DNA of 64,000 nt. Origin: Eledone cirrhosa. Taxonomy: Eukaryota. The position numbers and the translations under genes were made by a program. The notes below the pieces were generated by a model. It ran no database searches. It worked only from the letters and a program-made list of their open reading frames with translations, and was not told where the DNA came from. Where the stretch lies: positions 310,001-374,000 of the forward strand of contig OZ024740.1 in NCBI GenBank assembly GCA_964016885.1. Reading direction: 5' to 3'. Positions 656 through 63,914 of this stretch are shown in pieces (position 1 is the first letter of the stretch; every line of letters starts with the position of its first letter).

Positions 656-817
656 AATAATAATAAAGTATTAATAATGAAAATTATTGAGTACAGTACT
701 CAGGTGCACTACAACTCGTCAAAGGTGTATGTATAGTACATAGAATAATATTTGTCAGGGAAATGAATAGTGTATGAGTCATGATATACATGTGTGTATG
801 TGTATGGAGGGGGAACA

Positions 818-3800: not shown

Positions 3801-3830
3801 GCATTCAAGGACAACAATCTGTACCTTGAT
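818..3830 (-). pseudogene. Disrupted CR1 ORF2 (APE endonuclease + reverse transcriptase)
   Basis: Collinear ORF fragments 2856-3386, 2641-2880, 2028-2552, 1682-2026, 1330-1791, 818-1006, separated by frameshifts, stops and a SINE. Confidence 0.85.
1034..1353 (-). mobile_element. tRNA-derived CORE-like SINE (family 1) with RTE-derived 3' end
   Basis: Reverse complement of the copies at 45297 and 51731. Target duplication (c)agggtt at 1027-1033 and 1353-1359; removing the SINE restores the CR1 reading NNNP-EHIFDF. Confidence 0.9.
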
Positions 3831-3952
3831 TCCAGTATATGATTATGTGCAGGGGATGGCAGGTTGTTCTGATTTAGTTTCCCAGAGTTTTTTCAGTTTT
3901 TTTTATTGTCAGTTCTTGTGGGTACAGTGTTTTCAGACCAGCTGGTATCTCT

Positions 3953-5032
3953 TTACCATGTTTCACCAGCCTTAACAAACTTCCATATCTGCCTATCATC
4001 ATGTAGGCTGAAGCTTTCATGTTCTGCCAAGCTGCGGTTTAAGGAAGCTGCAGCACGCAACTTTGGGCGGACATCAGGTGGAATACCAGGGCATGTTCGG
4101 AAAGCAATCCGACTTTCACGCCTAGCTTTATCAGAGGCTACAAGGTATGAACGTGCCTCAGTTGAGTTCGAAAACGACAGTCTAATTAGCCTGGGTTTCG
4201 GGCCTGGTTGGCCAAGGCGTAGAGCACCCTTCGCGGGAGCACAGCCCAAGTCTTTGGATGAACTGGCAGCAAATGCCTGAAGATCAACTATGTCTTCTGG
4301 TACTCCAATGGCAATCACTTCGTGGTTTGCAGATTCAGTGGCATTCTCAATGCGTCTAGGTTCAACATGAGGTACGCGGAGATTTTTTAACAAGGCACTT
4401 TGGTAAGATCCCTCATTGTGAGGTTCTACACAAACGCTTGATTTTATTCCCGCTATTTCTCGGCTTAAAGCGGAAATCATTTGCCGTATTTCCTCAAACT
4501 CCGTATTGACGGTCAATTTTTGTTGTTGTTCTTCTCCTTCAACAGGCATGGTAGAAGACACAGTCGTCGGTTGTTGTTGTTGAAAAGTAACGGGGGAGGA
4601 AGAAATGGGTTGTTGTTGTTGATGAAGTCCTTCAGCGGGGGTAGTAGCAGAAACTACGGTTGTTGGTTTTTGCTGTTCAGGAACAATGGTAGGGGAAGAC
4701 ACGATCTTCGGTTTTTGTTGTTGTTGTTCAGCAGCAATGGTAGAGGCAGACATACACTCCAGGCACTGAAAGGACCAATTTGTTAGCTGGACCATCTCCC
4801 AGAGTCCATCCATCATAGCAATATGATGTTTCTTGTTTTGGCCTGGGATCTTCCGGAAGCCTGTGGCGCATTGAAGGCAGATAGAGATGCGACAGGTTCC
4901 ACATTCGACCCAACGATTACGGAACGAGTTTTCGGGTTCCGTACAGATATGGCAGATGTGATTTTCTGGGCAATGTTCTATTTTGGAACATCGACCAGTT
5001 TTGTCCCATACTTCATCCATGGACATCACCAT
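3953..5032 (-). CDS. CR1 ORF1 protein with N-terminal PHD-like Cys cluster, polyQ-containing repeats and coiled coil
   Basis: 359-aa ORF upstream of ORF2; CHIC..WVECGTC..CLQC..FQCLEC; repeated QQQQ-P-x-x-SS-x-T units; RLG..PRLIRLSF motif typical of CR1/L2 ORF1. Confidence 0.8.
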   Translation of the reverse strand: MVMSMDEVWDKTGRCSKIEHCPENHICHICTEPENSFRNRWVECGTCRISICLQCATGFRKIPGQNKKHHIAMMDGLWEMVQLTNWSFQCLECMSASTIAAEQQQQKPKIVSSPTIVPEQQKPTTVVSATTPAEGLHQQQQPISSSPVTFQQQQPTTVSSTMPVEGEEQQQKLTVNTEFEEIRQMISALSREIAGIKSSVCVEPHNEGSYQSALLKNLRVPHVEPRRIENATESANHEVIAIGVPEDIVDLQAFAASSSKDLGCAPAKGALRLGQPGPKPRLIRLSFSNSTEARSYLVASDKARRESRIAFRTCPGIPPDVRPKLRAAASLNRSLAEHESFSLHDDRQIWKFVKAGETW

Positions 5033-5303
5033 GGCAATTTTGTAAACAATATAGGTTTAGCGCACTTGATTACGATAGAAATAAAATGTTTGTTTTTGTT
5101 TTGTTTTTTGTGTATTTTTGTTTCCGTTTTCCTAAATATTGTGTGTGTGTGTGTGTGTACAAAAGAGTCTGCGCATGTAAACAAATAAATATGCTGTGTA
5201 AGTTAACAAGATAAATGTTTGTTTCTGTTTTGTTTTTGTATTTGTTTCTGTTTTCCTATGTTTCTGTGTGTGTATGCAACAAGATCTGCACACGAATATA
5301 TAA

Positions 5304-6970: not shown

Positions 6971-7211
6971 CACCTTTTGTTGAGATTGTTGTTGTAAAAG
7001 CCAAGATAATCTTTGATCCAGCAGATTTCTGAACCAATATATTCCATCATACACATAAGCATACACACAAAACACACACACACACACACATAGTATGCTT
7101 CATCACTACTTTACAAATGGTTTGCAATGGTTTGGTTGGACCTCAGTATTATCCATAATCATCATCTAGCAATCACACATCAACAGAGAAAATAAACTTT
7201 TTTATGCTATA

Positions 7212-7457
7212 TCATCATCACCATTATACGTCCATTCTTCCGCGCTAGCATGGGTTAGACGAGTTGTCATGTAGTGGGCAATGCCAGGTCAGGTGACCAG
7301 GTCTTGCTCATACAGAACTGATTTTGGCTTGGTTTCTACAGCTGCATGCCCTTCCTAACACCAACCTTATTTCCAATGAGTACTGGGTGCTTTTTTATCA
7401 TGACACCTACACAACCACTGTCTATATGTTTCAGCTTGTACCCATGGGACGTTGAGC
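7212..7457 (-). mobile_element. Old RTE (family A-like) 3' fragment
   Basis: (CAT)n tail; gctagcatgggttagac; gcatgcccttcctaacaccaacc. Confidence 0.8.
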
Positions 7458-7514
7458 ATATATATATATATATATTCAAATTTTAAGAAAGCCAAAACTA
7501 GGATATTATTATTT

Positions 7515-8105
7515 GCAGGCTTGGAAAGTATGGCAGGATGGGGAAAGTAGAGAGCACTATCAAGTGGTCAGGAGAGAGGCTAGGAGACAAGTGTACCTTG
7601 CAAAAAGGGTAGCAGAGGATAGAAAGTTCAAGCATATTCTGCAACGCGAGGTCAATGTCTCTGGACAATGTCTCTGGACCGAGACCTCTGGTGCTACGCA
7701 GTAATACAGAAGACCCGCCTTGCCTATGTACAAAGCAAAACCTACACTCAGTAGGCACCTCTTAACCAAATATACACCCCAATCTACTACCCCTACCCTA
7801 TCCTCCCACTCCCACCAACAGCACGAGAAAATGAGATCGAGTTTCATGTAGGTGTCACGACAAAAAACACACAGTCCACACTGTAATGTGGCCGTGTAGG
7901 TAACACGGTAAAAAGTTCCCAGTTCCACACCGTAAATGTGGTTGGTGTTAGGAAAGGCATCCAGCCGTAGAAAATCTGCCAGATAGTCCTATATGAGCGA
8001 GACACGGTCACCCGACCAGCCTTGCCTCAAGTGGGACAACTCCCGTCTAACCCATGCTAGCGTGGAAAACGGACGTTAAACGAAGATGATGATGATGATG
8101 ATGAT
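7515..8105 (+). mobile_element. RTE family B-like fragment with a large internal deletion
   Basis: QAWKVWQDG..FKHILQRE (matches ~17187-17320) joined directly to the ORF end and 3' UTR (matches ~19140 onward); (GAT)n tail. Confidence 0.8.
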
Positions 8106-10226: not shown

Positions 10227-11385
10227 ACAGGATTTATAAAATGGCCTCCTTGTCCCTCTTAATCTTTACCCCCCCCCCCCTATATCGTATACATGCCTGC
10301 TGGTTCACCCTTTCACTCACTCCCGTCTCTCACCAAATATAAATAAACCTGTTACGAGGTACGAATCTCAGAATTTGTCAATGCTTATTAATGGTGAGAC
10401 CGGCTCGCTCTCCTGCGAAATGTAATGTAAAATGCCATTTTTTCTTGTCTCTCCAGCCTCTCGGTCCATTCATTCATATATCCGTATCATCACCCAGAAT
10501 CCAATCTTTTGCTCCTTCTCAATGCTATTCTATAATTCTGTCTGGTTGTTGTAAATAATCTTCTTGTATTTTAAAATCCCATTATTCGCTTATTACTGTT
10601 ATATGCTTGTCCAATTATGCCCAAAATTCAAAGATTTTATTTAAACCCTCTCGCTAACTACCCCCATACCCCTCCCACCCGCCCCCACTCTCCACCATTA
10701 TTATTTGGACCAATCATAAGTCAGCGGCCTATGCTATCACTTCTCCTGGTTGCTTTTCGATATGATGGATGGACTAAGGATTTCTGGAGAGTCTGAAAAA
10801 TCTGAACACTCAGTGACAATGCCAAAGATAAAGACAAATTCACCTCATGCTGCCGGACGAAAAGGCAAGGACTCCTCTTCTTTGTTTCAGCCGCGGATGG
10901 CCAACATAACCCCAACCCCATCTCCCTCACCCCTCCGGCGCCCCACCCACCAAACGCAATCCCAAACTTCAGAGTTGGTACCATGAATGTAGGCACCTTA
11001 AAAGGTCGCTCTAACGAGGTTGTAGAAATGCTTGAATGTAAGGAGGTTGACGTTTACTGTATCCAAGAGACCAGGTGGAGGGGTGGGTCTGCTAGATTCA
11101 TTGTGGGTAAAAAACGATGCTATAAGCTTTTCTGGATGGGAAATGACAATGGGCTGGGTGGGGTAGGTATCATGTTAGCAGAAAAATGGGTAGATAAGAT
11201 AATAGACGTAAATAGAGTGAATGACAGAATAATTAAAATAAGACTTGTCCTAAATAGAACTACTGTGACAGTAATATCTGCGTACGCACCCCAATCCGGA
11301 CTGCCTGGCGCTATAAAAGACAGATTCTATGAGACACTGATGCTCACTACCTCCTAAATAACCGACAGTGACTATATAATTATTG
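10227..11385 (+). mobile_element. RTE family B 5' part (probable 5' UTR + APE endonuclease N-terminus), 3'-truncated
   Basis: MNVGTLKGRS..CIQETRWRG..GVGIML..ISAYAPQ; 11276-11385 is nearly identical to 16474-16584. Confidence 0.85.
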
Positions 11386-13653: not shown

Positions 13654-14437
13654 ATTATTTTGCTTCTCATTTATAATATTTCTCTGCACACAAGCTTCTT
13701 TATCATACACAAAAAATACCTTACCACTACAACCTCCATAATACTCTTGATTACCCGCTTAAAGTGCTTGTATTGCATATAACACCTTGCCGCACAATAA
13801 TCATATATAAATAAGACACACGTGCATGCCCCACGTGTAACTATTGCATGCAATAACTAATACAACTGACTAACAAACTATCCTCTTGCATTATCTATGT
13901 TAACTGCCAATGTTGCATTTTAATTTTAATTTTGCTTTGATTCTGTTTTAATATGATTTTAATTTTTGAATTTAAATTGTCATTCAGAAATAATATAATG
14001 AATGTCACCCCACTGTGTATCAATATATACATATGTATCTGTATGTCTCTTGTGTTGGAAAGGAGGTCATGTATGTCAACAAACATTGAAATAATCTCCG
14101 AAGACTCCAATCCTCGGTTTGGATGAAACAATTGTAAGCTAATAAATGGTTTGAACAGAACTTTGATTCGTGTGAATTCTATATAACTGCTCTGTAGAAC
14201 AACTGATGTTATTACATTGAGCTATTTATCTTACAGGTAATAAGGTAATAATAAATTACTATCTTTCATTGTTTAGGGTTTAAAATATATATAACTATGA
14301 AAAGTTTTAGTATATACATAACCATTATATATATATAATATATATATGTAATATATAATATACATATAATATATATATAATATATGTAATATATATATAA
14401 TATAATATATAATATATAATATATATATAATATATAT

Positions 14438-16477
14438 CATCATCATCATCACCGTTTTACGTCCGTTCTTCCACGCTAGCATGGGTTAGACGGGTTGTCC
14501 TGTTGTGGGCAGTGTCTGGTCGGCTGACCATGCCTTGCTCATACAGGAACTGATCTGGCTTGATTTCTACAGCTGGATGCCCTTCCTAACACCAACCTCA
14601 TTTACAGTGAGTGCTGGGTGCTTTTTCGTGGCGCCTACATGTCCACTTTACAGTGTGGGCTGGGTGCTTTTTTGCCGTGGCACCTCCACGACCACATTGC
14701 GGTGGGGGGAGTGGGGGCATATTGTTTATATGCTTCAGCATGTACCCATGGGAGGTCGGGTACCCTGTATTACTGCGTGACGCCAGAAGTCACGGTCGTG
14801 TGTCATTGACTTTGAGAGGTGTAGTTGGGTAAGGTCGGCTTTTATCACCTCATCCCAAGTCATCTTGGGTCTCCCCACTCCGCGGTTTCCATCAACTTCT
14901 AGTGCTCTGCACCTTTTTATGCAGCTGTCATCCTTCATACGCATCACATGTCCATACCAGCGTAACCGCCTCTCCTGCACGCAGCATTTGATTCCTCTTA
15001 TGCTCAGTCTCTCTCTCAATTCCTTTATGCTTTGTCGTTCACGTATATTACTGTTACACATCCATCGGAGCATGCAGGCTTCGTTTCTCTCTAATCTACG
15101 TAAGTCTTCCACCTTCAGCGCCCAGGTCTCACTACCATGCAACATCGCTGTTCGGATACACGCATCATACAGTCTGCCTTTCATTCTGAGGGAGAAGCCT
15201 TTTGCAGCTAGCAGTGGTAGTAGTTCCCTAAACTTCTTCCATCCCGTTCTTACCCTAGTTATTGTACTTTTAGAGCACCCACCTCCGTTGCTAATTCGGT
15301 CACCTAGGTAGCAGAAGCTGTCTACTGTTTCTACAGGGCCCTCCCAGAGATTGGTGGTACTTGTTTCCTGTGGCTGTTTGCTTGCTGTTTCAGCACAGCT
15401 GCTGCATGTGAATCCTACATTCTTAATTAAGCTTCCTGAGATCCCGCTACATCTCTTGTGTACCCATTGTTTGCATTTGGGGCAGAGAATGGAGTTCCTA
15501 CCTACACCTTTCCTACATACTGAGCAAGGCCATTTCCCTGAGGGGATCTGTGTTCTGTTTTCTCGTCTACTTATAAGGACCTTAGTCTTTGTCATGTTGA
15601 CTTTGAGGCCCTTTCTCTCTAGTCCCTGCTTCCAGGTTTGGAATTTATTCTCTAGTTCTACCATAGATTCAGCTATGAGTGTGAGGTCATCAGCATACAG
15701 GAGTTCCCATGGGCATCCGGTCTTAAACTCCTCCGTTATTGCCTGCAGGACTATGATGAACAGGAGAGGGCTAAGAACAGAGCCCTGGTGGACCCCAACG
15801 TGTACGCTAAATTCCTCGCTATACTCATTGCCAATCCTAACTTTGCTGACTGCTCCCCTATACATGGCTTGTACCGCTTTCACAAGCCATTCATCTACTC
15901 CTAGTTTTCTAAGAGCCCACCAGATTACTGCATGTGGAACTCTGTCAAAGGCTTTCTCAAGGTCGACAAATGCCAAGTAGAGTGGCTTACTTTTAGCTAG
16001 GTACTTTTCCTGTAATTGCCTCACAAGGAAGAGGGCATCAGTGGTGCCTTTCCCTGGTACAAACCCAAATTGCATCTCGTCTATATTCACCCGGTCCCTA
16101 ATCAGCTGTGCTATAACTCTTTCTGTTACTTTCATGACCTGGTCCATCAACTTTATACCTCTATAGTTTCCTCTATCTAGTGCATCGCCTTTACCTTTGT
16201 AGCAGTTGACAATGATGCTACTGCACCAATCTTTTGGTATGGCCCCCTCTAGTATTACCTGGTTAACGATACGTGTGGTTATAGTGTGACCTACAGACCC
16301 AGATGCCTTCAGCATCTCGGCAGCTATACCCGATGGACCGGTTGCCTTCCCTATCTTCATATCTCTGATTGCCTTACTTACTACGCTGCCGCTGACTTGT
16401 ACTGCTGGTCCCTCTATAGGGTCTACGTGGGGTAGGGTCTCTTCTTCCCATGCATTCTCCTCATTTAGTAATCTATC
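14438..16477 (-). mobile_element. RTE family A, 5'-truncated young copy (open RT-PHD ORF 14735-16360)
   Basis: NYRGIKLM, FVDLEKAFDRVP, GVHQGSVLSPLLF, LLYADD, C4HC3 finger; (GAT)n tail in (TA)n. Confidence 0.95.
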
Positions 16478-19400
16478 TGCGTACGCACCCCAATCCGGAC
16501 TGCCCGGCGCTATAAAAGACAGATTCTACGAGACACTGATGCTCGCTACCTCCCAAATAACCGACAGTGACTATATAGTTATTGCAGGCGACCTAAATGG
16601 TCACGTTGGACAACATTGTGACGGCTATGACGGAATCCATGGAGGCTATGGGTTCGGTACTAGAAATGAGGAAGGCTCCAGAATCCTGGAATTCTGCGAC
16701 GCAAATAACTTAACTATCTGTAACACTAACTTCAAAAAACGAGACAATCACCTGATCACCTATAGATCGGGGGAACACACAAGCCAGGTAGATTATATCC
16801 TTACCAGAAGACGTGACAGAGTGTCTGTTGTTAACACTAAATCCCACCCCCATGAAGAATTCACCTCCCAACATAGACTGATAATTAGCGACCTCATAGT
16901 CAGGACGAGACGTACTAGACAGCGGAAGAGGACTATCCTCAGGAGAAAAATATGGAAGCTAAAGGACCCCATAGCCAGAAATAAATTTCAAAGCATATTA
17001 CTTGACGCTTTCGACAGTAAGGAAGAGCAATTAGAGTCGTATAATATAGAGGAACAGTGGGAATTCCTGAAAGCAAACCTGCTGACGGCGGCAGACGAAG
17101 TCTGTGGCTGGAGCAGGCCTGTAGGTAGGAGGAGAGTAACATGGTGGTGGAACAGTAAGGTGGAGGAGTCAATTAAGGCCAAAAAGCAGGCTTGGAAAGT
17201 ATGGCGGGATGGGGGAAGTAGAGAAGACTATCAAGTGGCCAGGAGGGAAGCTAGGAGACAAGTGTACTTCGCAAAAAGGGAAGCAGAGGAAAGAAAGTTC
17301 AAGCATGTTCTACAACGTGAGGACCAAAAACGTGAGGTGTTCAGGATTGCCAGGCAATGTGTCAAGGAAAACCGTGATATTGTCGGGGAGAAGTGTGTAC
17401 TTAACGATGATGGCATACTTGCCATCACCGACGCTGATAAGAAGGTAGCTTGGAAGTGTCACTACGAAAGGCTTCTAAATGAGGAGAACAAATGGGAGAA
17501 AGACAGTCTCCCCCAGATCGATCCAATAGAGGGACCAGCAGTGTTAGTTGAAGGTAGTATAATAAGTAAGGCAATCAAAGATATGAAGACGGGTAAGGCG
17601 GCTGGGCCTTCGGAAATAGTTGCTGAGATGCTGAAGGCATCTGGTTCGGTGGGACACACCATGGTCACCGGGATAGTTAACCAAGTCGTACAGAATGGGG
17701 TTGTTCCGAAGGAATGGCGTAGCAGCATCATCGTTAACTGCTATAAGGGAAAATGAGATGCCCTAGATAGGAGTAACTATAGAGGCATTAAATTAATCGA
17801 CCAGGTCATGAAGGTCACGGAAAAAGTAATAGCGCAACTAATCAGAGAGAGAATTGATCTAGATGAAATGCAGTTCGGGTTTGTGTCAGGCAAAAGTACC
17901 ACAGACGCTCTTTTCATTGTACGGCAACTACAGGAGAAGTACCTAGCTAAAAGTAAACCCCTATACTTAGCTTTCGTCGACTTGGAGAAAGCCTTCGACA
18001 GAGTCCCCCGTTCCATTATCTGGTGGTCTCTTAGAAAACTAGGTGTTGACGAATGGCTTGTGAGAGCTATACAAGCCATGTATAAAGAAACAGTCAGTAA
18101 GGTTAGAATTAACAACGAATATAGTGAAGAGTTTAGCGTAAAAGTTGGTGTCCATCAGGGCTCTGTTCTTAGCCCCCTACTATTTATTATTGCCCTTCAG
18201 GCTATAACAGAGGAGTTCAAGACCGGCTGCCCATGGGAACTCCTATACGCAGATGATCTAACGCTCATAGCTGAATCAATGACCGAACTAGAGAAGAAAT
18301 TCCAAACATGGAAGCACGGCCTAGAATCAAAAGGCCTTAAAATTAACCTGGCTAAGACAAAAGTTCTAGTTTGTAGGAAAGAAAATATGGCGGCAGTCCC
18401 ATCGGGGAAATGGCCATGCTCAGTGTGTAGGAAAGGCGTAGGTAGAAACTCCATTTTATGTCCCAAATGCAAAGTATGGGTGCATAAAAGATGTAGTGGG
18501 ATCACAGGTAAGCTAACTAAGAACATAGATTTTACATGTGGCCGGTGCTCTGGTGCAATAAGTAGCAGCAAGTGCCCACAAAATACTAGCTCCTTCAACT
18601 GCGCAGAGGGTTCTATAGAAATAGTGGACAGCTTCCGTTATCTGGGTGACAAAATCAGCAGTGGGGGAGGGTGCTCTGAAAGTACAGTAGCTAGAGTCAG
18701 AACTGGATGGAAAAAGTTCAGAGAGCTTATACCACTATTAGCCGCTAGAGGGTTCTCCCTAAAAATGAAAGGCAGGTTATACGATGCCTGCATACGAACA
18801 GCAATGCTGCATGGCAGTGAGACCTGGGCATTGTGTGCAGAGGATATACGCAGACTAGAGAGGAACGAAGCTTGCATGCTCCGCTGGATGTGCAATAGTA
18901 ATATACGTGAACGGCAAAGCATAAACGAACTAAGGAAAAAATTAGAAATAAGAGGGATCAGATGTTGTTTACTCGAGAGAAGGCTACGTTGGTACGGTCA
19001 CGTGATGCGCATGAAAGACGACAGCTGTATAACAAAGTGTAGGGCAATAAAGATAGACGGTAGCCACGGAGTAGGCAGACCCAGAAAAACATGGGACGAG
19101 CTGATAAATTCCGACCTCACACGCTTACACCTCTCCAAGACAATGTCACTGGACCGAGACCTTTGGCGGTACTCAGTAATAGAGAAGACCCGCCTTACCT
19201 AAATACAAAGTAAAAACCTACTACAGTCAGTAGGCATCTCTATCAAAAGACACCCTCGTCCCACCACCTCCACCCCACCCACACCGCCCCTTTCAATGTA
19301 AAGTTATGTTGGTCCCACAACATCCAGGCCGAAACGAATGAGATCGTGTAGGTGTCACGACAAAAAACACACAGTCCACGCTGTAAATGTGGCCGTGTAG

Positions 19401-19697
19401 GCAACACGGTAAAAACCTCCCAGCCCCACACTGTAAATATGGTTGGTGTTAGGAAGGGCATCCAGCTGTAGAAAACCCGCCAGACAGTCCACGCTGTAAT
19501 GTGGCCGTGTAGGCAACACGGTAAAAACCTCCCAGCCCCACACTGTAAATGTGGTTGGTAAGGAAGGGCATCCAACTGTAGAAAACCCGCCAGACAGTCC
19601 TATGCGAGCAAGACAACCACTCTTGCCTCAAGTGGGAAAACCCCCGTCCAAACCCATGCAAGCGTGGAACACGGACGCTAAACCTGATGATGATGAT
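16474..19697 (+). mobile_element. RTE family B, 5'-truncated within APE; ORF ~16476-19202 with one in-frame TGA (17754-17756)
   Basis: ORFs 16539-17756 and 17808-19202 are in the same frame (KGK*DAL where family A has KGKGDAL); APE GDLNGHVG/SQHR, RT YADD, PHD; ~120-bp duplication in the 3' UTR; GAT tail. Confidence 0.95.
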
Positions 19698-19722
19698 ATA
19701 ATATATATATATATATATATAT

Positions 19723-19897
19723 ATAGGAACCAGTAAGACCCCGACAGCTGAGCTCAAGCCGTTTCGACGGCTCCGTCGAAACGGCTTGAGCTCAGCTGTC
19801 GGGGTCTTACTGGTTCCTATTACCCACTCTACTACCTCAAGTATTGAGTACTTTGGTGCGTTATGGTTCACCTGGTTCCTTACCACATTTCCTTCGT
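19723..19897 (+). mobile_element. Short Penelope-type 3' end carrying half a hammerhead ribozyme, folded back as a perfect palindrome
   Basis: 48-bp arms 19723-19770 and 19773-19820; GAAA-cggc-ttgagctca-gctg-TC core; gtattgagtac motif shared with the other hammerhead-bearing ends; flanked by (TA)n. Confidence 0.65.
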
Positions 19898-19927
19898 TAT
19901 ATATATATATAATATATATATATATAT

Positions 19928-20525
19928 CATCATCATCATCATCACCGTTTTACGTCCGTTCTTCCACGCTAGCATGGGTTAGACGGGTTGTCCTGTTGTG
20001 GGCAGTGTCTGGTCGGCTGACCATGCCTTGCTCATACAGGAACTGATCTGGCTTGATTTCTACAGCTGGATGCCCTTCCTAACACCAACCTCATTTACAG
20101 TGAGTGCTGGGTGCTTTTTCGTGGCGCCTACACGTCCACTTTACAGTGTGGGCTGGGTGCTTTTTTGCCGTGGCACCTCCACGACCACCTTGCGGTGGGG
20201 GGGGGGGGCATATTGTTTATATGCTTCAGCATGTACCCATGGGAGGTCGGGTACCCTGTATTACTGCGTGACGCCAGAAGTCACGGTCGTGTGTCATTGA
20301 CTTTGAGAGGTGTAGTTGGGTAAGGTCGGCTTTTATCACCTCATCCCAAGTCATCTTGGGTCTCCCCACTCCGCGGTTTCCATCAACTTCTAGTGCTCTG
20401 CACCTTTTTATGCAGCTGTCATCCTTCATACGCATCACATGTCCATACCAGCGTAACCGCCTCTCCTGCACGCAGCATTTGATTCCTCTTATGCTCAGTC
20501 TCTCTCTCAATTCATTTATGCTTTG
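19928..20525 (-). mobile_element. RTE family A 3' fragment in (TA)n
   Basis: Near-identical to 14438-15035. Confidence 0.95.
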
Positions 20526-20563
20526 TATATAAATATATATATAATATATAATATATATATATA

Positions 20564-20905: not shown

Positions 20906-20908
<3 letters not shown>

Positions 20909-22075
20909 GTAGATAAATCTACCAAGAGTTTACGGTAGTGTCCAATCCGTATGAAGAACTCAATGTATTCCGGATATCATGGAAAGAAGAGATGTAATGA
21001 AAATCCACTTTCGGTGAAAGATAAACGGTATACAGAGTCAAGATAAAATATTAAACAAATAATGAACAAACAATTCCTTATATTAAACAAAAAAAGTTCA
21101 CTATTTAACGATCGTTTCTAGGGTATATATGTGTTATAATTGGTATGCATATTTAACAGATCTATGTACAAAATTATACAAAATTATACAAATTATCAAG
21201 ATTAAATATACATACCTAACTCATATATACGCCGTCTTCAGAAATAATGAAGTATATTTATTGATAATAACAACAATTCAAAATATCAGTTCAAAATTGA
21301 CCAATGAAAACACAAAGGGTTAAAAGCAGTTTGGTGTGTGTATATACATGTAAAAACCTTACACATATTTTACAATAATGTGTGTATAATTTGTATGTGC
21401 ATACTAAAAAGATGGATGCAAACACAAAATTTCAAGGTTAATATCTCTGTAAGCTTAATGCGCTGATAAGATACGCAATGATACTTATGGAGTCAAGCAT
21501 ATAAATATATTTTTTTCATACTCACACATATCAGTATAATCACACATACATGTGCGTATATGCATAAATATACACATAACCACGAACATACAAACACACA
21601 CACTCCCCCACTCACATTTATATATGTGGATATAAAATCATAAGCAAATAGAAATTAAGTCACTCACATAAAACACTGGCACACACATTTCAAGATCAAG
21701 ATACAGAAATTAGGTGGGAGGGGGGGGGGGGAGGGGTCAGTATTAGATTGTCAGACCAGACTGCCTAATATAAATGTATCTATAAATTAAGAAAAATAAA
21801 AAAATAAAAACAATAAAATATAATGAATATAATATAATGTACATACACATACAGATATACATACACATACATACATGTACGCGCACATAGAGATACTTAC
21901 ACATACATACATACACACATACCTATACAGTCATACACACACATACATTTACACGAACATACACATACACATATAAAAAGATATAAATACACACACACAC
22001 ACACGCAACACATACACACATACACATATATATAAAAAATAGATAATAAAGATATATATCCATATATATATATAT

Positions 22076-22136
<61 letters not shown>

Positions 22137-22225
22137 CATACACATACATACTCATACATCTAAATATACATACACATACATACACACATACATGCATATA
22201 CATGTACATACATATACGCACATCG

Positions 22226-22268
<43 letters not shown>

Positions 22269-22636
22269 TATATATATACACTCACATAGACATAAAGATA
22301 CATACACACACAACTTACATACACACGCATACACATATATATATATATATATATAGATGTACCTTCATACATAGAATTAGATATATAATCATACATACAT
22401 ATGTACCTACTCATACTCATATAAATAAATACATACGCTTCCATCTAAGTGTATACACATAAAAAACAATACCACCTCACCAAACCCAGACATACAAATG
22501 AAAATAATAATAAAAAATAAAAATAAAAAAACGCATATGTATATACATACACACACGCATTAATAGAGATATATATATATACACACATACATACACACGC
22601 ATATATATACATACACACACACATACATACACATAC

Positions 22637-22695
<59 letters not shown>

Positions 22696-23033
22696 TAGAC
22701 TCATATATATATATATACATATACATATATATATATATAAACATATATATCCACACACTTATACCACCATAAATACACATACAAACACCCACATGTATAT
22801 ATATATATATATATACATATATCCACATACACACACGTACACATATATATATATATATATATACACATACATATATACATATATATATACACACACATAA
22901 AAAACAGACATGCACATACATATATATATATATATATTTCATTACTCTTATATATACACATAGTATATATACATACACAACCTCACTTATACACATATAC
23001 ACATAAGTTATATTACAATAATAATAAAGAATA

Positions 23034-23072
<39 letters not shown>

Positions 23073-23170
23073 CATATACACACATACATACACATACATA
23101 CATACACATAAATATATACATACATAAATACACACATACGAATAAAGACATATATTCACACATAGACACC

Positions 23171-23205
<35 letters not shown>

Positions 23206-23206
23206 C

Positions 23207-23238
<32 letters not shown>

Positions 23239-25779
23239 CATATATATACACATACACACACACACACGCACACAGACACACATACACACTCACATATATA
23301 TATATATATATATGTGTATGTGAGTGTGCGCAAATACACATATATATACACACACACACATACAAACACACACAAACACATACATATGCATACGTGCACA
23401 CACACACACATATATCACATAGATACGAAGATAAACATATAAATAGAGAGACATACAAATATATACAGAACCCATATACACATACATACAAAGACGCATA
23501 TACATATACATACATATATACACATATATATATTCCTACATACAAGCATACACATACATACACATATATACATATACATACACATATACATACCACACAT
23601 TCACATACACATACATATATAATACATATATATACATATATATACACACATATGTATGTACAATCATATATACACACTCAATCTTACATTCATATTTACA
23701 TGCTCATATATGTATTTTTATATTTAGAAATAAATACCAAAACCTATATAGACACCCACCTACACATATATTCATACATATACGCTTACAAAAACAGATG
23801 ATAATAGTATGGGGGAAAGGGGGGGTTTGGAGAAGGGGATCAAAGTAAATATATGTTTCAAGAAACATATAATATTTTCCGTATCTTAATTCAATGTATG
23901 TTCTTACATAATTTCAGTGCTAGGAAATACGAAATCTATGCATCTCAAAACAAAAAAGTATACCATTAATCATATGTTAACTAAACCAAAGATAGTCAAC
24001 ATATTGATTTCCAAGGTGTAAATTAGTTAGGTTTATAATATTTGAAGCAGAATTATGAAGTCAAACAGTAGTAGATTATTAATTACATTATAACTAAATT
24101 AAAGTTAATAACGTTATGGTATCAATATTAGGAGATGAATTTAGTAATAGGGAAAAGAAACCCAAATAAAAATAAAATAAAGTATTACATCGGTAGTAGC
24201 ATATAAATTATATGTTAACTAAATTAAAAATTATATATTTATTTCAATAGTATACGTTAATTAGTATATGTTAATTAGGTATACAATACATAAAGCAGAT
24301 ATTATATTTCATCAATAGCATAATATAATTATATGCAAATAAAAATCAAAATTAATACGCATACATATACATATACATACACATACACATATATATACAT
24401 ATACACACATATATATATATATATACATATATATACACATATATACATATATACTCACATAAACATACATACAGATACACATACACAACACACACATATA
24501 CATATACATATAGATATACATATCTTTTTCAAAAAATTGCACAGAATATATTAACTAGGTATATATCCAAAACACATCCCATTCTATGATTACATGACAT
24601 TCTGCAATTCGTCTGCACAAGGATACTAATCTTAAGCAAATTAAAATTAAAGTTTTAGGTTGATTAAAACTAAAACCAAATAATAAATATATTTCCAAAA
24701 TGTATATTAATTAGGTCTATAATACTAAAAATTCTTTCTCCGTCATTGGATACATGATATTATTTTGTTATATTTTATCTGTAAAAGAATTATAATAAAA
24801 AAAAAAAAAAAAAAAATTATAATAAAAGGTTAAAATAAATTAAAATTAATCTATAAATTAAATTACTGAGTATATATTAGTAATATTTAAAGGTTTTTCA
24901 AAATTTATGATTACATAATATTTTCTCATCTGTAATAAAATATTAATTAAATTAAATTTATAGGTTAACTAACATTTAAATTAAATTAAATTCTAGAATA
25001 ATGTTATTAATTAGGTTTATAATATTTAAATGTTTTTTTTAGTTTATGATTACACGATATAATTAATTCCTGTCTTTTACTTAATAAGATATCCCTAGAC
25101 TTCATTATTTCAAATAGTTCTTGGGAACATAATCTACATTCCTTTCTATCATTTTGATAAGGGGTGGCTCTTTTGAGCACACTCCAGGTCAAATCATATT
25201 TTATATTTTTATTTTTATAACTATTGATTTTTTCTGCTAGAGATGTTGTATTAGCCAGTGCGGCATTTTTAAAGCTATGTTTGTGGGTATTATACCTTGT
25301 CTTAAAATTGTTAGAGGTAGCTCCTATATATGAGCAAATAGAATCTTTAGTTTTAACATTACATTTATAGACTATGTTGTTAACAAGACAATTCCCTTTT
25401 AATGGGCAGTTTGTTTTGTTTCTACAGTTACATCCTTTCGTTAATTCTGTATTTGAGGAGATATTATTGTTAATTTGATGTACTGGTGGTATACTTATGG
25501 TTTTCTTACATTTATATGCATTATATGCACTTATATTTTGTTTTATGTTATTTGTTGTAGAGTATGAGAATTTAACTGTAGACCTATTTAAGATTTGATG
25601 GTATTTGTGGTTTGGCGGGAAGTTTTTCTCAAGGATATAAAAAAATTTTTTAGCAATATTATCCTTAACTTGTAAATTAAAAGGAGCATTATACCAAGTA
25701 ACTCGTCTATTACGGTTTCTATGTTGTTTATTATTTTTATTATTTTTATATGTTGTATCATGATTTTTACTAGGAGGAT
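20906..25779 (-). mobile_element. Inverted, 5'-truncated copy of the Penelope/Naiad element
   Basis: Reverse complement of 28152-32873 extended through the equivalent of 26330; near-identical (one QND/QNN change and microsatellite length differences seen). Confidence 0.95.
21097..21251 (-). ncRNA. Type I hammerhead ribozyme in the inverted Penelope copy
   Basis: Reverse complement of 25985-26139. Confidence 0.8.
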
Positions 25780-25984
25780 AAGCTTACAGAGATATTAACC
25801 TTGAAATTTTGTGTTTGCATCCATCTTTTTAGTATGCACATACAAATTATACACACATTATTGTAAAATATGTGTAAGGTTTTTACATGTATATACACAC
25901 ACCAAACTGCTTTTAACCCTTTGTGTTTTCATTGGTCAATTTTGAACTGATATTTTGAATTGTTGTTATTATCAATAAATATAC

Positions 25985-26139
25985 TTCATTATTTCTGAAG
26001 ACGGCGTATATATGAGTTAGGTATGTATATTTAATCTTGATAATTTGTATAATTTTGTATAATTTTGTACATAGATCTGTTAAATATGCATACCAATTAT
26101 AACACATATATACCCTAGAAACGATCGTTAAATAGTGAA
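25985..26139 (+). ncRNA. Type I hammerhead ribozyme in the 5' pLTR
   Basis: Stem I ttcattattt/aaatagtgaa; CUGAAGA 25995-26001; ~115-nt hairpin stem II; GAAA-C-GATC-G-UU; predicted cleavage after 26129. Confidence 0.8.
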
Positions 26140-26482
26140 CTTTTTTTGTTTAATATAAGGAATTGTTTGTTCATTATTTGTTTAATATTTTATCTTGACT
26201 CTGTATACCGTTTATCTTTCACCGAAAGTGGATTTTCATTACATCTCTTCTTTCCATGATATCCGGAATACATTGAGTTCTTCATACGGATTGGACACTA
26301 CCGTAAACTCTTGGTAGATTTATCTACATAATTTTGCTCCTATTTTCACGGAAATATTCGTATGTTTGTACTGTATGTGTGTATTAATTTTATATTTATG
26401 TATAAACATATATATATGTATGATTTTGTAAACCCATATACATTTAGTTGAGCTCTTTCAATTGTCCATCATCCATATCACA

Positions 26483-28924
26483 ATGGAAAAACAATATTTA
26501 GGAACCTCCTTAAAAAACATACCAATACCTTCTAAGGACGACTTCTTACTCCTTATGATTCAGAAAACTAATAATTTTATCAGAAGGGTTAGATGGAGAG
26601 CCTACCACTTCGATAGAAAATCTAAAAAGGCAGATCGGAAATATATGTTTGATTTCAACACTTACAAGAATCCACCACACAACTTTTTACTTGAAGACTT
26701 CGAGAAAGACCTTTTTAATTTAATTAAACACCTCAAATTTAAAAAGTATAAATCCGTCTTTCAAAAGGACCTTGATTCTACCCTATTGGACCTAAAAAAG
26801 TCTAAAAAAATCCATGTCCACTCGGACAAAACTGGTAACTTGTATCATATGGATATTGAACATTATAATGAGTTCATATATAAAGAACTCAGAAAAAATT
26901 ATAAAAAATCTAATAATGTGTCACTCACCAACATCAACAACAAAACACACAACATAGTAAAAAAACTAAATATTGAAGATAGAACTGAACCTTTGGCATT
27001 GAAAAGACCACACTTCAACCTGAAAGATCACAAATCTAACTTTAACTCTAATCCTTCTATTAGACTTATATGTCCCTCCAAATCAGATATTGGAATAATT
27101 AGCAAAAAAATTTTAGATAGAGTCATCCCACAAATAAGAAAATACGTTATTTTACCACTCTGGGAAAACACCTCCCAGGTAATTAATTGGTTTAAAAATA
27201 TTAGGTGTAAATCTTCTGCTTCTTTCCTACAATTTGATATAGATAATTACTATTCTTCTATATCACCCATACTCCTGAACAAAGCATTAATATTTGCTAA
27301 AAATAGATCTAATTTAACTTCGGATGACATTAACATTATTACACATGCTAGACAAACACTTATTGAATTTCAGAATGAATACTGGACCAGAAACACATAC
27401 AGTAATCTTTTTGATATTACTATGGGTTCAAGCGATTCCGCCCAAATTACTGATCTTGTGGGCCTCTTTCTCCTTTTCAACATAAATGCCTCTTTTCCCC
27501 ACCTCAAAGGTGGTTTATATCGTGATGACTGTCTTCTTCTTTCTAACAACATTAGCCTTTCAGAAATCGAAAAAAACAAAAAGCATATTAGAACTTTCCT
27601 TAAAGACTATTATAATCTTAATATTACTTTTGAAAAAACAAGTAAAGTAGTAAATTTCCTAGATATAACTTTAGATTTAGCTACGGGTATATACCAACCT
27701 TACCATAAACCTAACCAAAACTTACATTACATACACTCACAATCTAATCACCCTAAATCTATCCTTAAAAACCTTGCATATAATATATCACTTAGAATTT
27801 CTAACCTTTCTTCTAACCAAGATGTATTTGATAAAAATGCGACCTTTTATAATGAAGCTCTAGATAGAAGTGGCCACAAAAATAGATTAGAGTATATACC
27901 TTCTACTAAAAATACTGAAAGCATACAGCATAATATTACCAACAAACACCAAATGAAAAGTACACACCTAAATGCCACCCACAGTATACCCCAAAATACT
28001 AAATCTTCTAATATAAAGTATAGTAACCCTCAAAAAACTACTCATCATACAACTATAATAAATATTAATAATAAAACTCCAAATAAAAAAGATAAAACAC
28101 CTAAATCTACAAATATAACTAAAAATAGTTGTGGTGAGATCATTAACATTAATCCTCCTAGTAAAAATCATGATACAACATATAAAAATAATAAAAATAA
28201 TAAACAACATAGAAACCGTAATAGACGAGTTACTTGGTATAATGCTCCTTTTAATTTACAAGTTAAGGATAATATTGCTAAAAAATTTTTTTATATCCTT
28301 GAGAAAAACTTCCCGCCAAACCACAAATACCATCAAATCTTAAATAGGTCTACAGTTAAATTCTCATACTCTACAACAAATAACATAAAACAAAATATAA
28401 GTGCATATAATGCATATAAATGTAAGAAAACCATAAGTATACCACCAGTACATCAAATTAACAATAATATCTCCTCAAATACAGAATTAACGAAAGGATG
28501 TAACTGTAGAAACAAAACAAACTGCCCATTAAAAGGGAATTGTCTTGTTAACAACATAGTCTATAAATGTAATGTTAAAACTAAAGATTCTATTTGCTCA
28601 TATATAGGAGCTACCTCTAACAATTTTAAGACAAGGTATAATACCCACAAACATAGCTTTAAAAATGCCGCACTGGCTAATACAACATCTCTAGCAGAAA
28701 AAATCAATAGTTATAAAAATAAAAATATAAAATATGATTTGACCTGGAGTGTGCTCAAAAGAGCCACCCCTTATCAAAATAATAGAAAGGAATGTAGATT
28801 ATGTTCCCAAGAACTATTTGAAATAATGAAGTCTAGGGATATCTTATTAAGTAAAAGACAGGAATTAATTATATCGTGTAATCATAAACTAAAAAAAACA
28901 TTTAAATATTATAAACCTAATTAA
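26483..28924 (+). CDS. Penelope-like RT + GIY-YIG endonuclease (Naiad-type), 813 aa from the first ATG
   Basis: SDKTGN, QFDIDNYYSSI, TMGSSDSAQITDLVG, LYRDD, FLDITLDL, YIHSQSNHP; CxCx5Cx5C linker (CNCRNKTNCPLKGNC); IVY..SYIG..FKTRYNTH; CRLC. Confidence 0.95.
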   Translation: MEKQYLGTSLKNIPIPSKDDFLLLMIQKTNNFIRRVRWRAYHFDRKSKKADRKYMFDFNTYKNPPHNFLLEDFEKDLFNLIKHLKFKKYKSVFQKDLDSTLLDLKKSKKIHVHSDKTGNLYHMDIEHYNEFIYKELRKNYKKSNNVSLTNINNKTHNIVKKLNIEDRTEPLALKRPHFNLKDHKSNFNSNPSIRLICPSKSDIGIISKKILDRVIPQIRKYVILPLWENTSQVINWFKNIRCKSSASFLQFDIDNYYSSISPILLNKALIFAKNRSNLTSDDINIITHARQTLIEFQNEYWTRNTYSNLFDITMGSSDSAQITDLVGLFLLFNINASFPHLKGGLYRDDCLLLSNNISLSEIEKNKKHIRTFLKDYYNLNITFEKTSKVVNFLDITLDLATGIYQPYHKPNQNLHYIHSQSNHPKSILKNLAYNISLRISNLSSNQDVFDKNATFYNEALDRSGHKNRLEYIPSTKNTESIQHNITNKHQMKSTHLNATHSIPQNTKSSNIKYSNPQKTTHHTTIININNKTPNKKDKTPKSTNITKNSCGEIININPPSKNHDTTYKNNKNNKQHRNRNRRVTWYNAPFNLQVKDNIAKKFFYILEKNFPPNHKYHQILNRSTVKFSYSTTNNIKQNISAYNAYKCKKTISIPPVHQINNNISSNTELTKGCNCRNKTNCPLKGNCLVNNIVYKCNVKTKDSICSYIGATSNNFKTRYNTHKHSFKNAALANTTSLAEKINSYKNKNIKYDLTWSVLKRATPYQNNRKECRLCSQELFEIMKSRDILLSKRQELIISCNHKLKKTFKYYKPN

Positions 28925-30692
28925 TAACATTATTCTAGAATTTAATTTAATTTAAATGTTAGTTAACCTATAAATTTAATTTAATTAATATTTTATTACA
29001 GATGAGAAAATATTATGTAATCATAAATTTTGAAAAACCTTTAAATATTACTAATATATACTCAGTAATTTAATTTATAGATTAATTTTAATTTATTTTA
29101 ACCTTTTATTATAATTTTTTTTTTTTTTTTTTTTATTATAATTCTTTTACAGATAAAATATAACAAAATAATATCATGTATCCAATGACGGAGAAAGAAT
29201 TTTTAGTATTATAGACCTAATTAATATACATTTTGGAAATATATTTATTATTTGGTTTTAGTTTTAATCAACCTAAAACTTTAATTTTAATTTGCTTAAG
29301 ATTAGTATCCTTGTGCAGACGAATTGCAGAATGTCATGTAATCATAGAATGGGATGTGTTTTGGATATATACCTAGTTAATATATTCTGTGCAATTTTTT
29401 GAAAAAGATATGTATATCTATATGTATATGTATATGTGTGTGTTGTGTATGTGTATCTGTATGTATGTTTATGTGAGTATATATGTATATATGTGTATAT
29501 ATATGTATATATATATATATATGTGTGTATATGTATATATATGTGTATGTGTATGTATATGTATATGTATGCGTATTAATTTTGATTTTTATTTGCATAT
29601 AATTATATTATGCTATTGATGAAATATAATATCTGCTTTATGTATTGTATACCTAATTAACATATACTAATTAACGTATACTATTGAAATAAATATATAA
29701 TTTTTAATTTAGTTAACATATAATTTATATGCTACTACCGATGTAATACTTTATTTTATTTTTATTTGGGTTTCTTTTCCCTATTACTAAATTCATCTCC
29801 TAATATTGATACCATAACGTTATTAACTTTAATTTAGTTATAATGTAATTAATAATCTACTACTGTTTGACTTCATAATTCTGCTTCAAATATTATAAAC
29901 CTAACTAATTTACACCTTGGAAATCAATATGTTGACTATCTTTGGTTTAGTTAACATATGATTAATGGTATACTTTTTTGTTTTGAGATGCATAGATTTC
30001 GTATTTCCTAGCACTGAAATTATGTAAGAACATACATTGAATTAAGATACGGAAAATATTATATGTTTCTTGAAACATATATTTACTTTGATCCCCTTCT
30101 CCAAACCCCCCCTTTCCCCCATACTATTATCATCTGTTTTTGTAAGCGTATATGTATGAATATATGTGTAGGTGGGTGTCTATATAGGTTTTGGTATTTA
30201 TTTCTAAATATAAAAATACATATATGAGCATGTAAATATGAATGTAAGATTGAGTGTGTATATATGATTGTACATACATATGTGTGTATATATATGTATA
30301 TATATGTATTATATATGTATGTGTATGTGAATGTGTGGTATGTATATGTGTATGTATATGTATATATGTGTATGTATGTGTATGCTTGTATGTAGGAATA
30401 TATATATGTGTATATATGTATGTATATGTATATGCGTCTTTGTATGTATGTGTATATGGGTTCTGTATATATTTGTATGTCTCTCTATTTATATGTTTAT
30501 CTTCGTATCTATGTGATATATGTGTGTGTGTGTGCACGTATGCATATGTATGTGTTTGTGTGTGTTTGTATGTGTGTGTGTGTATATATATGTGTATTTG
30601 CGCACACTCACATACACATATATATATATATATATATGTGAGTGTGTATGTGTGTCTGTGTGCGTGTGTGTGTGTGTATGTGTATATATATG

Positions 30693-30764
<72 letters not shown>

Positions 30765-30876
30765 GGTGTCTATGTGTGAATATATGTCTTTATTCGTATG
30801 TGTGTATTTATGTATGTATATATTTATGTGTATGTATGTATGTGTATGTATGTGTGTATATGTATATATATATATG

Positions 30877-30915
<39 letters not shown>

Positions 30916-31253
30916 TATTCTTTATTATTATTGTAATATAACTTATGTGTATATGTGTATAAGTGAGGTTGTGTATGTATATATACTATGTGTATATATA
31001 AGAGTAATGAAATATATATATATATATATGTATGTGCATGTCTGTTTTTTATGTGTGTGTATATATATATGTATATATGTATGTGTATATATATATATAT
31101 ATATATGTGTACGTGTGTGTATGTGGATATATGTATATATATATATATATATACATGTGGGTGTTTGTATGTGTATTTATGGTGGTATAAGTGTGTGGAT
31201 ATATATGTTTATATATATATATATGTATATGTATATATATATATATGAGTCTA

Positions 31254-31314
<61 letters not shown>

Positions 31315-31788
31315 GTATGTGTATGTATGTGTGTGTGTATGTATATATATGCGTGTGTATGTATGTGTGTATATATATATATCTCTATTAATGCGTGTGT
31401 GTATGTATATACATATGCGTTTTTTTATTTTTATTTTTTATTATTATTTTCATTTGTATGTCTGGGTTTGGTGAGGTGGTATTGTTTTTTATGTGTATAC
31501 ACTTAGATGGAAGCGTATGTATTTATTTATATGAGTATGAGTAGGTACATATGTATGTATGATTATATATCTAATTCTATGTATGAAGGTACATCTATAT
31601 ATATATATATATATATGTGTATGCGTGTGTATGTAAGTTGTGTGTGTATGTATCTTTATGTCTATGTGAGTGTATATATATATATATATATATGTATATC
31701 GATGTGCGTATATGTATGTACATGTATATGCATGTATGTGTGTATGTATGTGTATGTATATTTAGATGTATGAGTATGTATGTGTATG

Positions 31789-31843
<55 letters not shown>

Positions 31844-32664
31844 ATATATATATATATGGATATATATCTTTATTATCTATTTTTTATATATATGTGTATG
31901 TGTGTATGTGTTGCGCGTGTGTGTGTGTGTATTTATATCTTTTTATATGTGTATGTGTATGTTCGTGTAAATGTATGTGTGTGTATGACTGTATAGGTAT
32001 GTGTGTATGTATGTATGTGTAAGTATCTCTATGTGCGCGTACATGTATGTATGTGTATGTATATCTGTATGTGTATGTACATTATATTATATTCATTATA
32101 TTTTATTGTTTTTATTTTTTTATTTTTCTTAATTTATAGATACATTTATATTAGGCAGTCTGGTCTGACAATCTAATACTGACCCCTCCCCCCCCCTCCC
32201 ACCTAATTTCTGTATCTTGATCTTGAAATGTGTGTGCCAGTGTTTTATGTGAGTGACTTAATTTCTATTTGCTTATGATTTTATATCCACATATATAAAT
32301 GTGAGTGGGGGAGTGTGTGTGTTTGTATGTTCGTGGTTATGTGTATATTTATGCATATACGCACATGTATGTGTGATTATACTGATATGTGTGAGTATGA
32401 AAAAAATATATTTATATGCTTGACTCCATAAGTATCATTGCGTATCTTATCAGCGCATTAAGCTTACAGAGATATTAACCTTGAAATTTTGTGTTTGCAT
32501 CCATCTTTTTAGTATGCACATACAAATTATACACACATTATTGTAAAATATGTGTAAGGTTTTTACATGTATATACACACACCAAACTGCTTTTAACCCT
32601 TTGTGTTTTCATTGGTCAATTTTGAACTGATATTTTGAATTGTTGTTATTATCAATAAATATAC

Positions 32665-32819
32665 TTCATTATTTCTGAAGACGGCGTATATATGAGTTAG
32701 GTATGTATATTTAATCTTGATAATTTGTATAATTTTGTATAATTTTGTACATAGATCTGTTAAATATGCATACCAATTATAACACATATATACCCTAGAA
32801 ACGATCGTTAAATAGTGAA
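32665..32819 (+). ncRNA. Type I hammerhead ribozyme in the 3' pLTR
   Basis: Identical to 25985-26139. Confidence 0.8.
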
Positions 32820-32870
32820 CTTTTTTTGTTTAATATAAGGAATTGTTTGTTCATTATTTGTTTAATATTT

Positions 32871-32873
<3 letters not shown>

Positions 32874-33736: not shown

Positions 33737-33770
33737 TATAATATATATATATAATATATATAATATATAT
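32874..33770. repeat. (TA)n array with AA interruptions
   Basis: Direct inspection. Similar arrays at 20526-20905, 39205-39638, 44918-45296, 45650-46759 and 47511-48303. Confidence 0.95.
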
Positions 33771-37590: not shown

Positions 37591-37591
37591 C

Positions 37592-37671
<80 letters not shown>

Positions 37672-58336: not shown

Positions 58337-59253
58337 TCTATCTATCTATCTAAGGCGGGTAAAATTCCCGAGATCCATGGACGAGTTCTCTCCAGCGGTC
58401 TCTGTCCCTCATTATCGCTGCCATGTCCTACGTCTCCAACAGACCAGTGTCTGTCCTTAGGGCATCAACATACGTTAACCTTGGTCTTCCTCTTCTAGTG
58501 TGTCCATGTAGGGGCTCCCAAAGGAGCACTGAGTGCAATGTCAACTCTGGATGTCGGTGAGCATGTCCAGCTAACCTCAGTCTCCTCTGTGTCACTTTTG
58601 AGCTGACTTTTAGGATGCTCCCATACAGCTCTGAGTTTTTCATCCTCAGTGTATACTGATTAATGTTCAGAGCCATCCTCAGCATTCTCGTGTAGCACCC
58701 ATCCACCATCTGAGTGAGTTTCTTGGTCACTGTCCAAGTCTCAGACCCATACAGCAGCACAGACTCCACTACAGCAATGAAGAGGCGGATTTTCAGGTAT
58801 CTACGAAGGTCCGACTTCCACACCGATCTCAAGCTGTGGCACACCGCCCAGGCCTTGCTCTTCCTCTCAATGACATCATCTTCCGTATTCCCAATCTTTG
58901 CTCCCAAATACAGGAAGCCCTCAACCAATTCTAGCGGATTCCCGCCTACATTAGTGATCCCCTCTGGCTTCTCAACATTCTCTACCAGATATTTTGTTTT
59001 AGTCTCATTCATTCTCAGCCCCACACTCATCGACACAGTCTCAACCTCCCGCATCAAATCCTCTGCCTCCTTCACTGTATTTGTCACCAAAACTATGTCG
59101 TCGGCAAATTCAGCATCCGATACCTTTTTCGCCCTAACTCTCCTGCTCTGAGCCGGTGATACAGTAAAGCCAGAGTCCTGGTGTTTCTCCAGTGCAAGGC
59201 GCATACAATGGTCCACTACGATGATAAAAAGGTAGGGAGCCAATGTATCTCCC
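58337..59253 (-). mobile_element. RTE family C, 5'-truncated
   Basis: GDTLAPYLFII, EFADD, VESVLLYGSETW, RRLRLAGH, GRPRLTY; (TAGA)n tail. Confidence 0.9.
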
Positions 59254-59520
59254 AAAAGTCAGCTCAAAAGTGACACATAGGAGACTGAGGTTGGCTGGAC
59301 ATGCTCGCCGACACCCAGAGTTGACATTGCACTCAGAGCTCCTTTGGGAGCCCCTACATGGAGACACTAGAAGAGGAAAAACAAGGTTAACATATGTTGA
59401 TGCCCTAAGGACAGACACTGGTCTGTTGGAGATGCAGGATATGGCAGCGATAATGAGGGACAGAGACCGCTGGAGAGAACTCGTCCATGGATCTCGGGAA
59501 CTTTACCCGCATTAGATAGA
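59250..59520 (+). mobile_element. RTE family C 3' end, second copy, fused head-to-head
   Basis: KVSSKVTHRRLRLAGH..ELYPH; tagataga tail; differs from the minus copy at multiple sites. Confidence 0.9.

Positions 59521-63914
<4,394 letters not shown>

Follow-up and report, generated by a model that had tools for sequence, protein, structure and literature searches.

A TA repeat holding two LINEs joined head to head

We analyzed a window of 64,000 nucleotides from the genome of Eledone cirrhosa (GenBank assembly GCA_964016885.1, 3.0 Gb; contig OZ024740.1, G000:C1:310001-374000). It contains two truncated copies of long interspersed nuclear elements (LINEs), of families A and B, which are joined by their 5' ends within a TA repeat. 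Plain coordinates below are positions in the window, and those preceded by G000:C1 or C1 are positions in the contig. The locus comprises the following features.

14326..14437, left (TA)n tract, the proposed target, abutting the end of a Penelope-like element short of its final ~20 nt
14438..16477, minus strand, family A LINE, 5'-truncated at 1606/3643, with a reverse transcriptase (RT) with PHD-like finger, a 3' untranslated region (UTR), and a (GAT)5 tail at its left end
16467..16477, 5'-to-5' junction, with the perfect microhomology TATC at 16474-16477 and an imperfect extension (9/11)
16474..19697, plus strand, family B LINE, 5'-truncated at ~430/3647, within the endonuclease domain, with a (GAT)4 tail
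19698..19725, right (TA)n tract
19726..19897, plus strand, 172-bp hairpin element, a separate insertion in the same TA tract

The arm of family A (14440-16477) is 99.3% identical to positions 53520-55557, part of a near full-length A copy (53520-57162) found by comparing the window with itself, and that of family B (16474-19697) is 98.4% identical to the full-length B copy at G000:C1:228506-232152. Pfam domains RVT_1 and PHD were found in arm A. Arm B has a partial Exo_endo_phos_2, i.e., an apurinic/apyrimidinic (AP)-like endonuclease, followed by RVT_1 and PHD; it is interrupted by a premature stop (17754-17756) and carries the 112-bp UTR repeat characteristic of its family. An earlier note on this DNA, made from the sequence alone, had described each arm as keeping its own 3' UTR and (GAT)n tail, facing outward into (TA)n. 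We found the same: the (GAT)5 of A runs into the tract at 14326-14437 and the (GAT)4 of B into that at 19698-19725. The PHD-like finger lies directly after the RT core in both families (14735-16525 on the minus strand, 17757-19202 on the plus strand, 53815-56106 on the minus strand), and clusters with RVT_1 and PHD are also present in other animals (Atlas).

Elements of the RTE clade have a short 3' UTR with a short tandem-repeat tail and no poly(A). Families A and B show this anatomy, with a single open reading frame (ORF) encoding an AP-like endonuclease and then RT (Pfam, full-length ORFs), and with a short 3' UTR ended by a (GAT)n tandem repeat without poly(A). The RTE label of the earlier note fits them and rests on this anatomy together with that note, as the look-alikes in the Atlas carry no clade name. 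The two families are 74% identical over 3 kb, and near full-length copies have intact single ORFs of about 1040 aa in A and 986-1075 aa in B. Since both families retain such copies, they were presumably active at the same time. An exact 23-nt motif of the 3' end occurs 14,403 times in the assembly for A and 4,120 times for B. Private differences affect 6 of 1998 sites in arm A (3.0/kb) and 11 of 3182 in arm B (3.5/kb; binomial p 1.0), and the family medians are 1.9/kb for A (55 copies) and 3.3/kb for B (43 copies). Both families are young.

The perfect overlap between the arms, TATC at 16474-16477, was fixed by the nearest copies running through the breakpoints (10 per arm): all 10 A copies diverge from the locus beyond 16477, and all 10 B copies diverge upstream of 16474. 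This confirms that A, on the minus strand, meets B, on the plus strand, with no spacer, as had been claimed. The motif AGTAA (16467-16471) is also common to both arms, which extends the match to 9/11 with a 2-nt bulge. About 2% of junctions would show a match of 4 nt or longer by chance alone. The junction 30-mer has a single occurrence in the assembly (at most one mismatch), and there is no N gap near it. None of the contigs listed from four public runs (of 18 on the list) bridges the junction; these runs look like relatives, differing at majority letters of B, so that the lack of a bridge carries no weight, and their contigs end exactly at 16474 and 16477.

No remainder of A or B was found beside either tail, and the 5' piece of B at 10806-11385 represents an older copy (89-94%). 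Plain nesting was excluded at this locus because neither element's remainder is present, the host remainder being lacking past both tails. We also rejected a composite element spreading as a unit (single-copy junction) and a fold-back inverted duplication (arms 76% alike, unrelated flanks). In classical twin priming, a single RNA gives inverted copies that meet at a microhomology and share one 3' tail. The microhomology is there, whereas the 74% identity of the families and the two tails differ from the products of one RNA. From the sequence, it is certain that two separate templates were copied.

Two-tailed pairs in the sampled genome

We sampled 1,817,320 bases in 126 stretches, mostly at the start of C1, holding about 460 3' ends of the RTE group. 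Besides contiguous blocks, the sample covers the regions around every one of the 100 listed A copies and around the first 53, by coordinate, of the 100 B copies listed. Junction classes were assigned by hand from BLAST searches against a library built from the same sample. Of the 26 head-to-head adjacencies in the first 1.53 Mb (gap at most 12), 7 are two-tailed pairs without nesting and 7 are rows of ordinary one-tailed inversions (4 events, such as that at G000:C1:7352436; one of the events is present in 4 duplicates). Hairpin elements account for 5 more and nested insertions for 2. The remaining five are a fold-back duplication, an adjacency truncated at the end of a stretch, one whose arms are separated by 6 nt of TA, one in which the partner is a fragment without a tail, and one that is old and ambiguous. 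The sequence added afterwards revealed no new two-tailed pair, one more nested mimic, and one cross-family tandem fusion. Over the whole sample, the mimics of such pairs amounted to three nested insertions and a fold-back duplication, besides numerous head-to-head neighbours separated by a short stretch of TA. The seven two-tailed, spacer-less pairs, 4 of them cross-family, are the following.

C1:219691, B-like/F
C1:293136, B/A
C1:326477, A/B, the index case
C1:369255, C/C, at 58337..59526 of the window, a true two-tailed head-to-head pair of family C only, with arms 94.5% alike and the 3-nt microhomology CCC
C1:469496, tiny
C1:1004871, A/SINE (short interspersed nuclear element)
C1:11450802, B/B

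The earlier note had proposed measuring the microhomology at such junctions: it spans 2-4 nt at the sampled ones, plus one templated insertion and one blunt join. By eye, TA lies no farther than ~20 nt from each outer end in 7/7 pairs, compared with 22/104 young single copies that are TA-rich on both sides. Among the exact-motif copies listed, 2 of 100 for A and 1 of 53 for B belong to two-tailed pairs, index case included.

The fold-back inverted duplication (G000:C1:5344507-5346331, junction at G000:C1:5345489) comprises 843 bp at 98.6%, which take in the tail and the 3' portion of an A-like LINE together with 315 bp of flanking sequence. This mimic of a two-tailed pair may come from the fusion of two sister ends after target-primed reverse transcription (TPRT). 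Past the tails of two of the two-tailed pairs, a short motif and TA have expanded to a minisatellite (59516-63913 and G000:C1:293495-293880). The former is 4.4 kb long and its motif recurs on the far flank.

Orientation and age of direct junctions

The earlier note had called for a count of orientations. In our 1.82-Mb sample this count gave a head-to-head excess, which is however only suggestive (p 0.04-0.32). In the contiguous blocks (882 kb), the ratio of head-to-head to tail-to-tail was 5:0 for direct junctions and 8:10 for spaced ones (p 0.038), in a test that leaves out one old, ambiguous tail-to-tail case (76%). With all data, the ratios were 7:2 and 15:19 (p 0.076), a comparison that is biased because the targeted stretches were anchored on intact tails. 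The age gap between arms was smaller in the 7 direct than in the 20 spaced head-to-head pairs (Mann-Whitney p 0.052). This evidence leans towards a distinct mechanism without establishing it.

Origin of the A/B pair

The explanation that we find best, and to which we give about an even chance, is a single event in which two RNAs were primed at the two ends of a break in (TA)n and their cDNAs were joined by microhomology. The sequence (TA)n is self-complementary, so that a ...AT-3' primer is available on either side of a break; it would pair with the (GAU)n tail of the RNA. Single copies joined to TA have AT common to tail and target, which is consistent with such priming. The RNA of family A at one end and that of family B at the other would be copied by ordinary tail-primed TPRT over 2.0 and 3.2 kb. 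The 3' ends of the cDNAs would then anneal at TATC/AGTAA, with fill-in and ligation by microhomology-mediated end joining. The net result would be twin priming on two RNAs instead of one. Speaking for it are the intact copies of both families, the similar loads of private differences in the two arms, the six other two-tailed pairs with TA near their outer ends, the types of junction, and the suggestive results on orientation and age. More tentatively, and with some doubt on our side, these LINEs might routinely integrate in this way from both ends of one (TA)n break, even across families or with a LINE and a SINE. About 1-3% of copies would lie in two-tailed fusions, and this germline, single-site process would be as common as 5' inversion.

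Several observations weigh against a single event. A target-site duplication is unreadable around the A/B pair, both flanks being (TA)n, and none could be read in any of the 7 pairs; a split host element, sought around six pairs, was not found. The tract is a multi-insertion hotspot, a landing pad that also holds a further A copy (19927-20526), a large Penelope-like element, and the 172-bp element, which has 40 scored near full-length matches genome-wide and TA on both sides in 11/11 inspected copies. In such a landing pad, sequential insertion is more likely a priori, and any target-site duplication is masked. At the 0.6 threshold used for single copies, just 3/7 pairs pass on both sides. Cross-family direct junctions were 4 head-to-head to 1 tandem, against 13:14 for spaced ones, giving a p of 0.21 (0.32 without the index case). 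Removing the index case also weakens the contiguous-block test to p 0.068 and the age test to p 0.088. The tandem control class is undercounted, because same-family tandem fusions look like internal deletions, which abound. One direct pair looks age-discordant (5.1 vs 2.5%, one arm having just 60 bp), and the match in age between arms A and B has low power in view of the family medians (1.9/kb for A, 3.3/kb for B). The earlier note had proposed that two RNAs were copied at one cut. The two templates stand (74% identity, two tails), but entry in one event is not secured, as there is no readable duplication, the site is a hotspot, spaced head-to-head neighbours are common, and the orientation excess is not significant for cross-family pairs.

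The strongest alternative, which we regard as a serious possibility although we would not bet on it, is that one copy inserted in (TA)n, a second one next to the 5' end of the first, and the intervening TA disappeared, by target-site deletion at the microhomology attachment or by later end-joining repair. Sequential insertion with loss of a short spacer yields a sequence identical to that of the single event. The crowding of the tract by the pair, the 172-bp element, the A copy, and the Penelope-like element speaks for it. It also accords with the spaced head-to-head neighbours, whose TA spacers of 6, 13, 15, and 28 nt form a continuum and whose arms often differ in age (7211-8102 is an example in the window). 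Microhomology deletions within elements are frequent, copies of two families are fused in tandem with no spacer at G000:C1:171839, and the Penelope-like repeat end at the left flank is ~20 nt shorter at the TA edge than in 7/7 other copies inspected, a loss in line with this scenario. According to PMC5932611, dimers of transposable elements can arise from two insertions at the same site. Yet sequential insertion should give tandem and tail-to-tail junctions about as often, and we observed 7 head-to-head, 1 cross-family tandem, and 2 tail-to-tail. It should also join old arms to young ones, whereas an arm below 1% divergence was joined to one above 5% in 0/7 direct pairs and in 5/20 spaced pairs.

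We find it improbable that the pair is a rearrangement bridge, i.e., that A and B underwent TPRT at two distant sites and that the joining of their cDNA ends left an inversion or translocation breakpoint. The same anatomy is described as spanning reciprocal inversions and translocations (10.1101/2024.08.27.596794; 10.1101/2024.12.14.628481), and both flanks of the A/B pair are unrelated repeats. Against this, there are five pairs within a single contiguous block of 635 kb, so that many rearrangements would have to be fixed, and TA lies near both ends in 7/7 pairs, to be compared with a TA-rich 3' flank in 36/104 young singles. A chimera of two repeats made by the assembly or the library is very unlikely: the junction is found once in the assembly and no listed public contig bridges it, but its microhomology is clean, both arms have ordinary loads of private mutations, there is no N gap, and six similar pairs of varied age exist.

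Comparison with known systems

Twin priming of L1 was reportedly described by Ostertag and Kazazian in 2001. As described in 10.1101/2024.08.27.596794, it involves a single RNA, both DNA ends prime, and the inverted cDNAs meet. The A/B pair would resemble it in that both ends prime and the inverted cDNAs are joined by microcomplementarity, as proposed here. It differs in having two RNAs and two tails, instead of one RNA with an internal second primer and one tail. According to the same paper, inversion and translocation junctions can consist of two 5'-truncated L1s that meet at their 5' breakpoints and bear a tail at each end. The study 10.1101/2024.12.14.628481 describes the joining of primary reverse transcription ends, and the extension of the two ends of one site on different mRNAs, followed by ligation to distant ends. 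These two-L1 bridges in tumours and L1-induced cells share with the A/B pair the distinct 5'-truncated elements, joined at 5', with outer tails and different RNAs. They are, however, somatic and link different loci, whereas the A/B pair possibly occupies one (TA)n site, combines different LINE families, and lies in a reference assembly. The two-cDNA joints of L1 in 10.1101/2024.12.14.628481 resemble the junctions of the seven pairs in their types (microhomology, insertion, blunt).

The double insertions of McGurk and Barbash 2018 (PMC5932611) are also independent, truncated non-LTR (long terminal repeat) copies adjoining at a preferred site. Most of them run in tandem, tail-to-5', and retain target sequence in the junction, while A and B are joined 5'-to-5' with no target sequence between them. 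PMC10191854 and PMC9115989 provided general background only. In a literature search of limited coverage, we found no report of a single-site, two-family, head-to-head LINE fusion.

The structure is real and recurs at a low rate, and its origin in one event is plausible. It bears on a general question still open in the field, that of how TPRT deals with the second DNA end. If both ends of a palindromic target can be primed with RNA tails, two ribonucleoprotein particles act at one break, and the symmetry of the target sets the outcome. Breaks in fragile (TA)n tracts could then be mended by LINEs from either side, and TA substrates, but not asymmetric ones, would be expected to yield two-tailed insertions. 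If insertion was sequential, the A/B pair is what a crowded microsatellite hotspot would ordinarily produce.

Penelope-like elements and other repeats nearby

The earlier note had listed four recurrences of the geometry of the A/B pair and derived from them a general mode of bidirectional integration. Only the pair at 58337-59526 stands as a LINE pair, of a single family; those at 20906-32873, 39639-39955, and 57608-57810 are not RTE pairs. The general mode does not follow from these examples, three of the four being Penelope-like (two of them probably so). The element at 20906-32873 has an ORF of 830 aa of RT plus GIY-YIG type, pseudo-LTRs, and an inverted 5'-truncated copy that is 99.9-100% identical outside simple repeats. 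The ORF contains YRDD and YIG motifs, which we take to be signatures of RT and GIY-YIG, respectively. Pfam gave no match on this ORF, and its look-alikes in the Atlas carry GIY-YIG at 0.96-0.97. By these features, the element classifies as Penelope-like. The other two are short hairpin elements in which one arm lacks the terminal extension. They have a hammerhead-like core (CTGATGA..GAAA), with no hammerhead fold at minimum energy (z -0.7), and Rfam revealed no family in the window. Their motif and shape suggest that they are probably of Penelope origin. The Penelope-like elements of Craig et al. 2021 (PMC8557442) resemble the A/B pair in having an inverted 5'-truncated copy near the 5' end and (TA)n targets, which accounts for 20906-32873 and probably for the two hairpins. 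They differ from the A/B junction in involving one family, a GIY-YIG enzyme, and near-identical arms.

Other elements of the window lie at TA tracts. An A copy at the edge of one (35960-37595) probably has a 6-bp duplication (TCGTTT), and its 5' end carries 5.8 repeats of a 13-bp unit, which suggests slippage during 5' attachment. At the end of a long TA tract, 33762-34735 is an element with 222-bp terminal inverted repeats (98.6%). At G000:C1:7.37-9.4 Mb, copies of A and B lie in a ~20-bp satellite instead of (TA)n, several of them in segmental duplicates.

A tRNA-like SINE at 1037-1354, 45294-45629, and 51727-52119 has a middle part from the 3' UTR of family A and a 3' end from LINE family F, and a second SINE has a family A-like end. 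Tandem arrays derived from LINE 3' regions, with units of about 95 bp and 38 bp, occur at G000:C1:2014719-2017223, 700300-702000, 6473879-6474400, and 557666-558777; these would be satellites born from these LINEs. Finally, two more LINE families with endonuclease and RT domains were found at 40900-44918 and 709-5200, one of them with a (AAAAGAGT)n tail.

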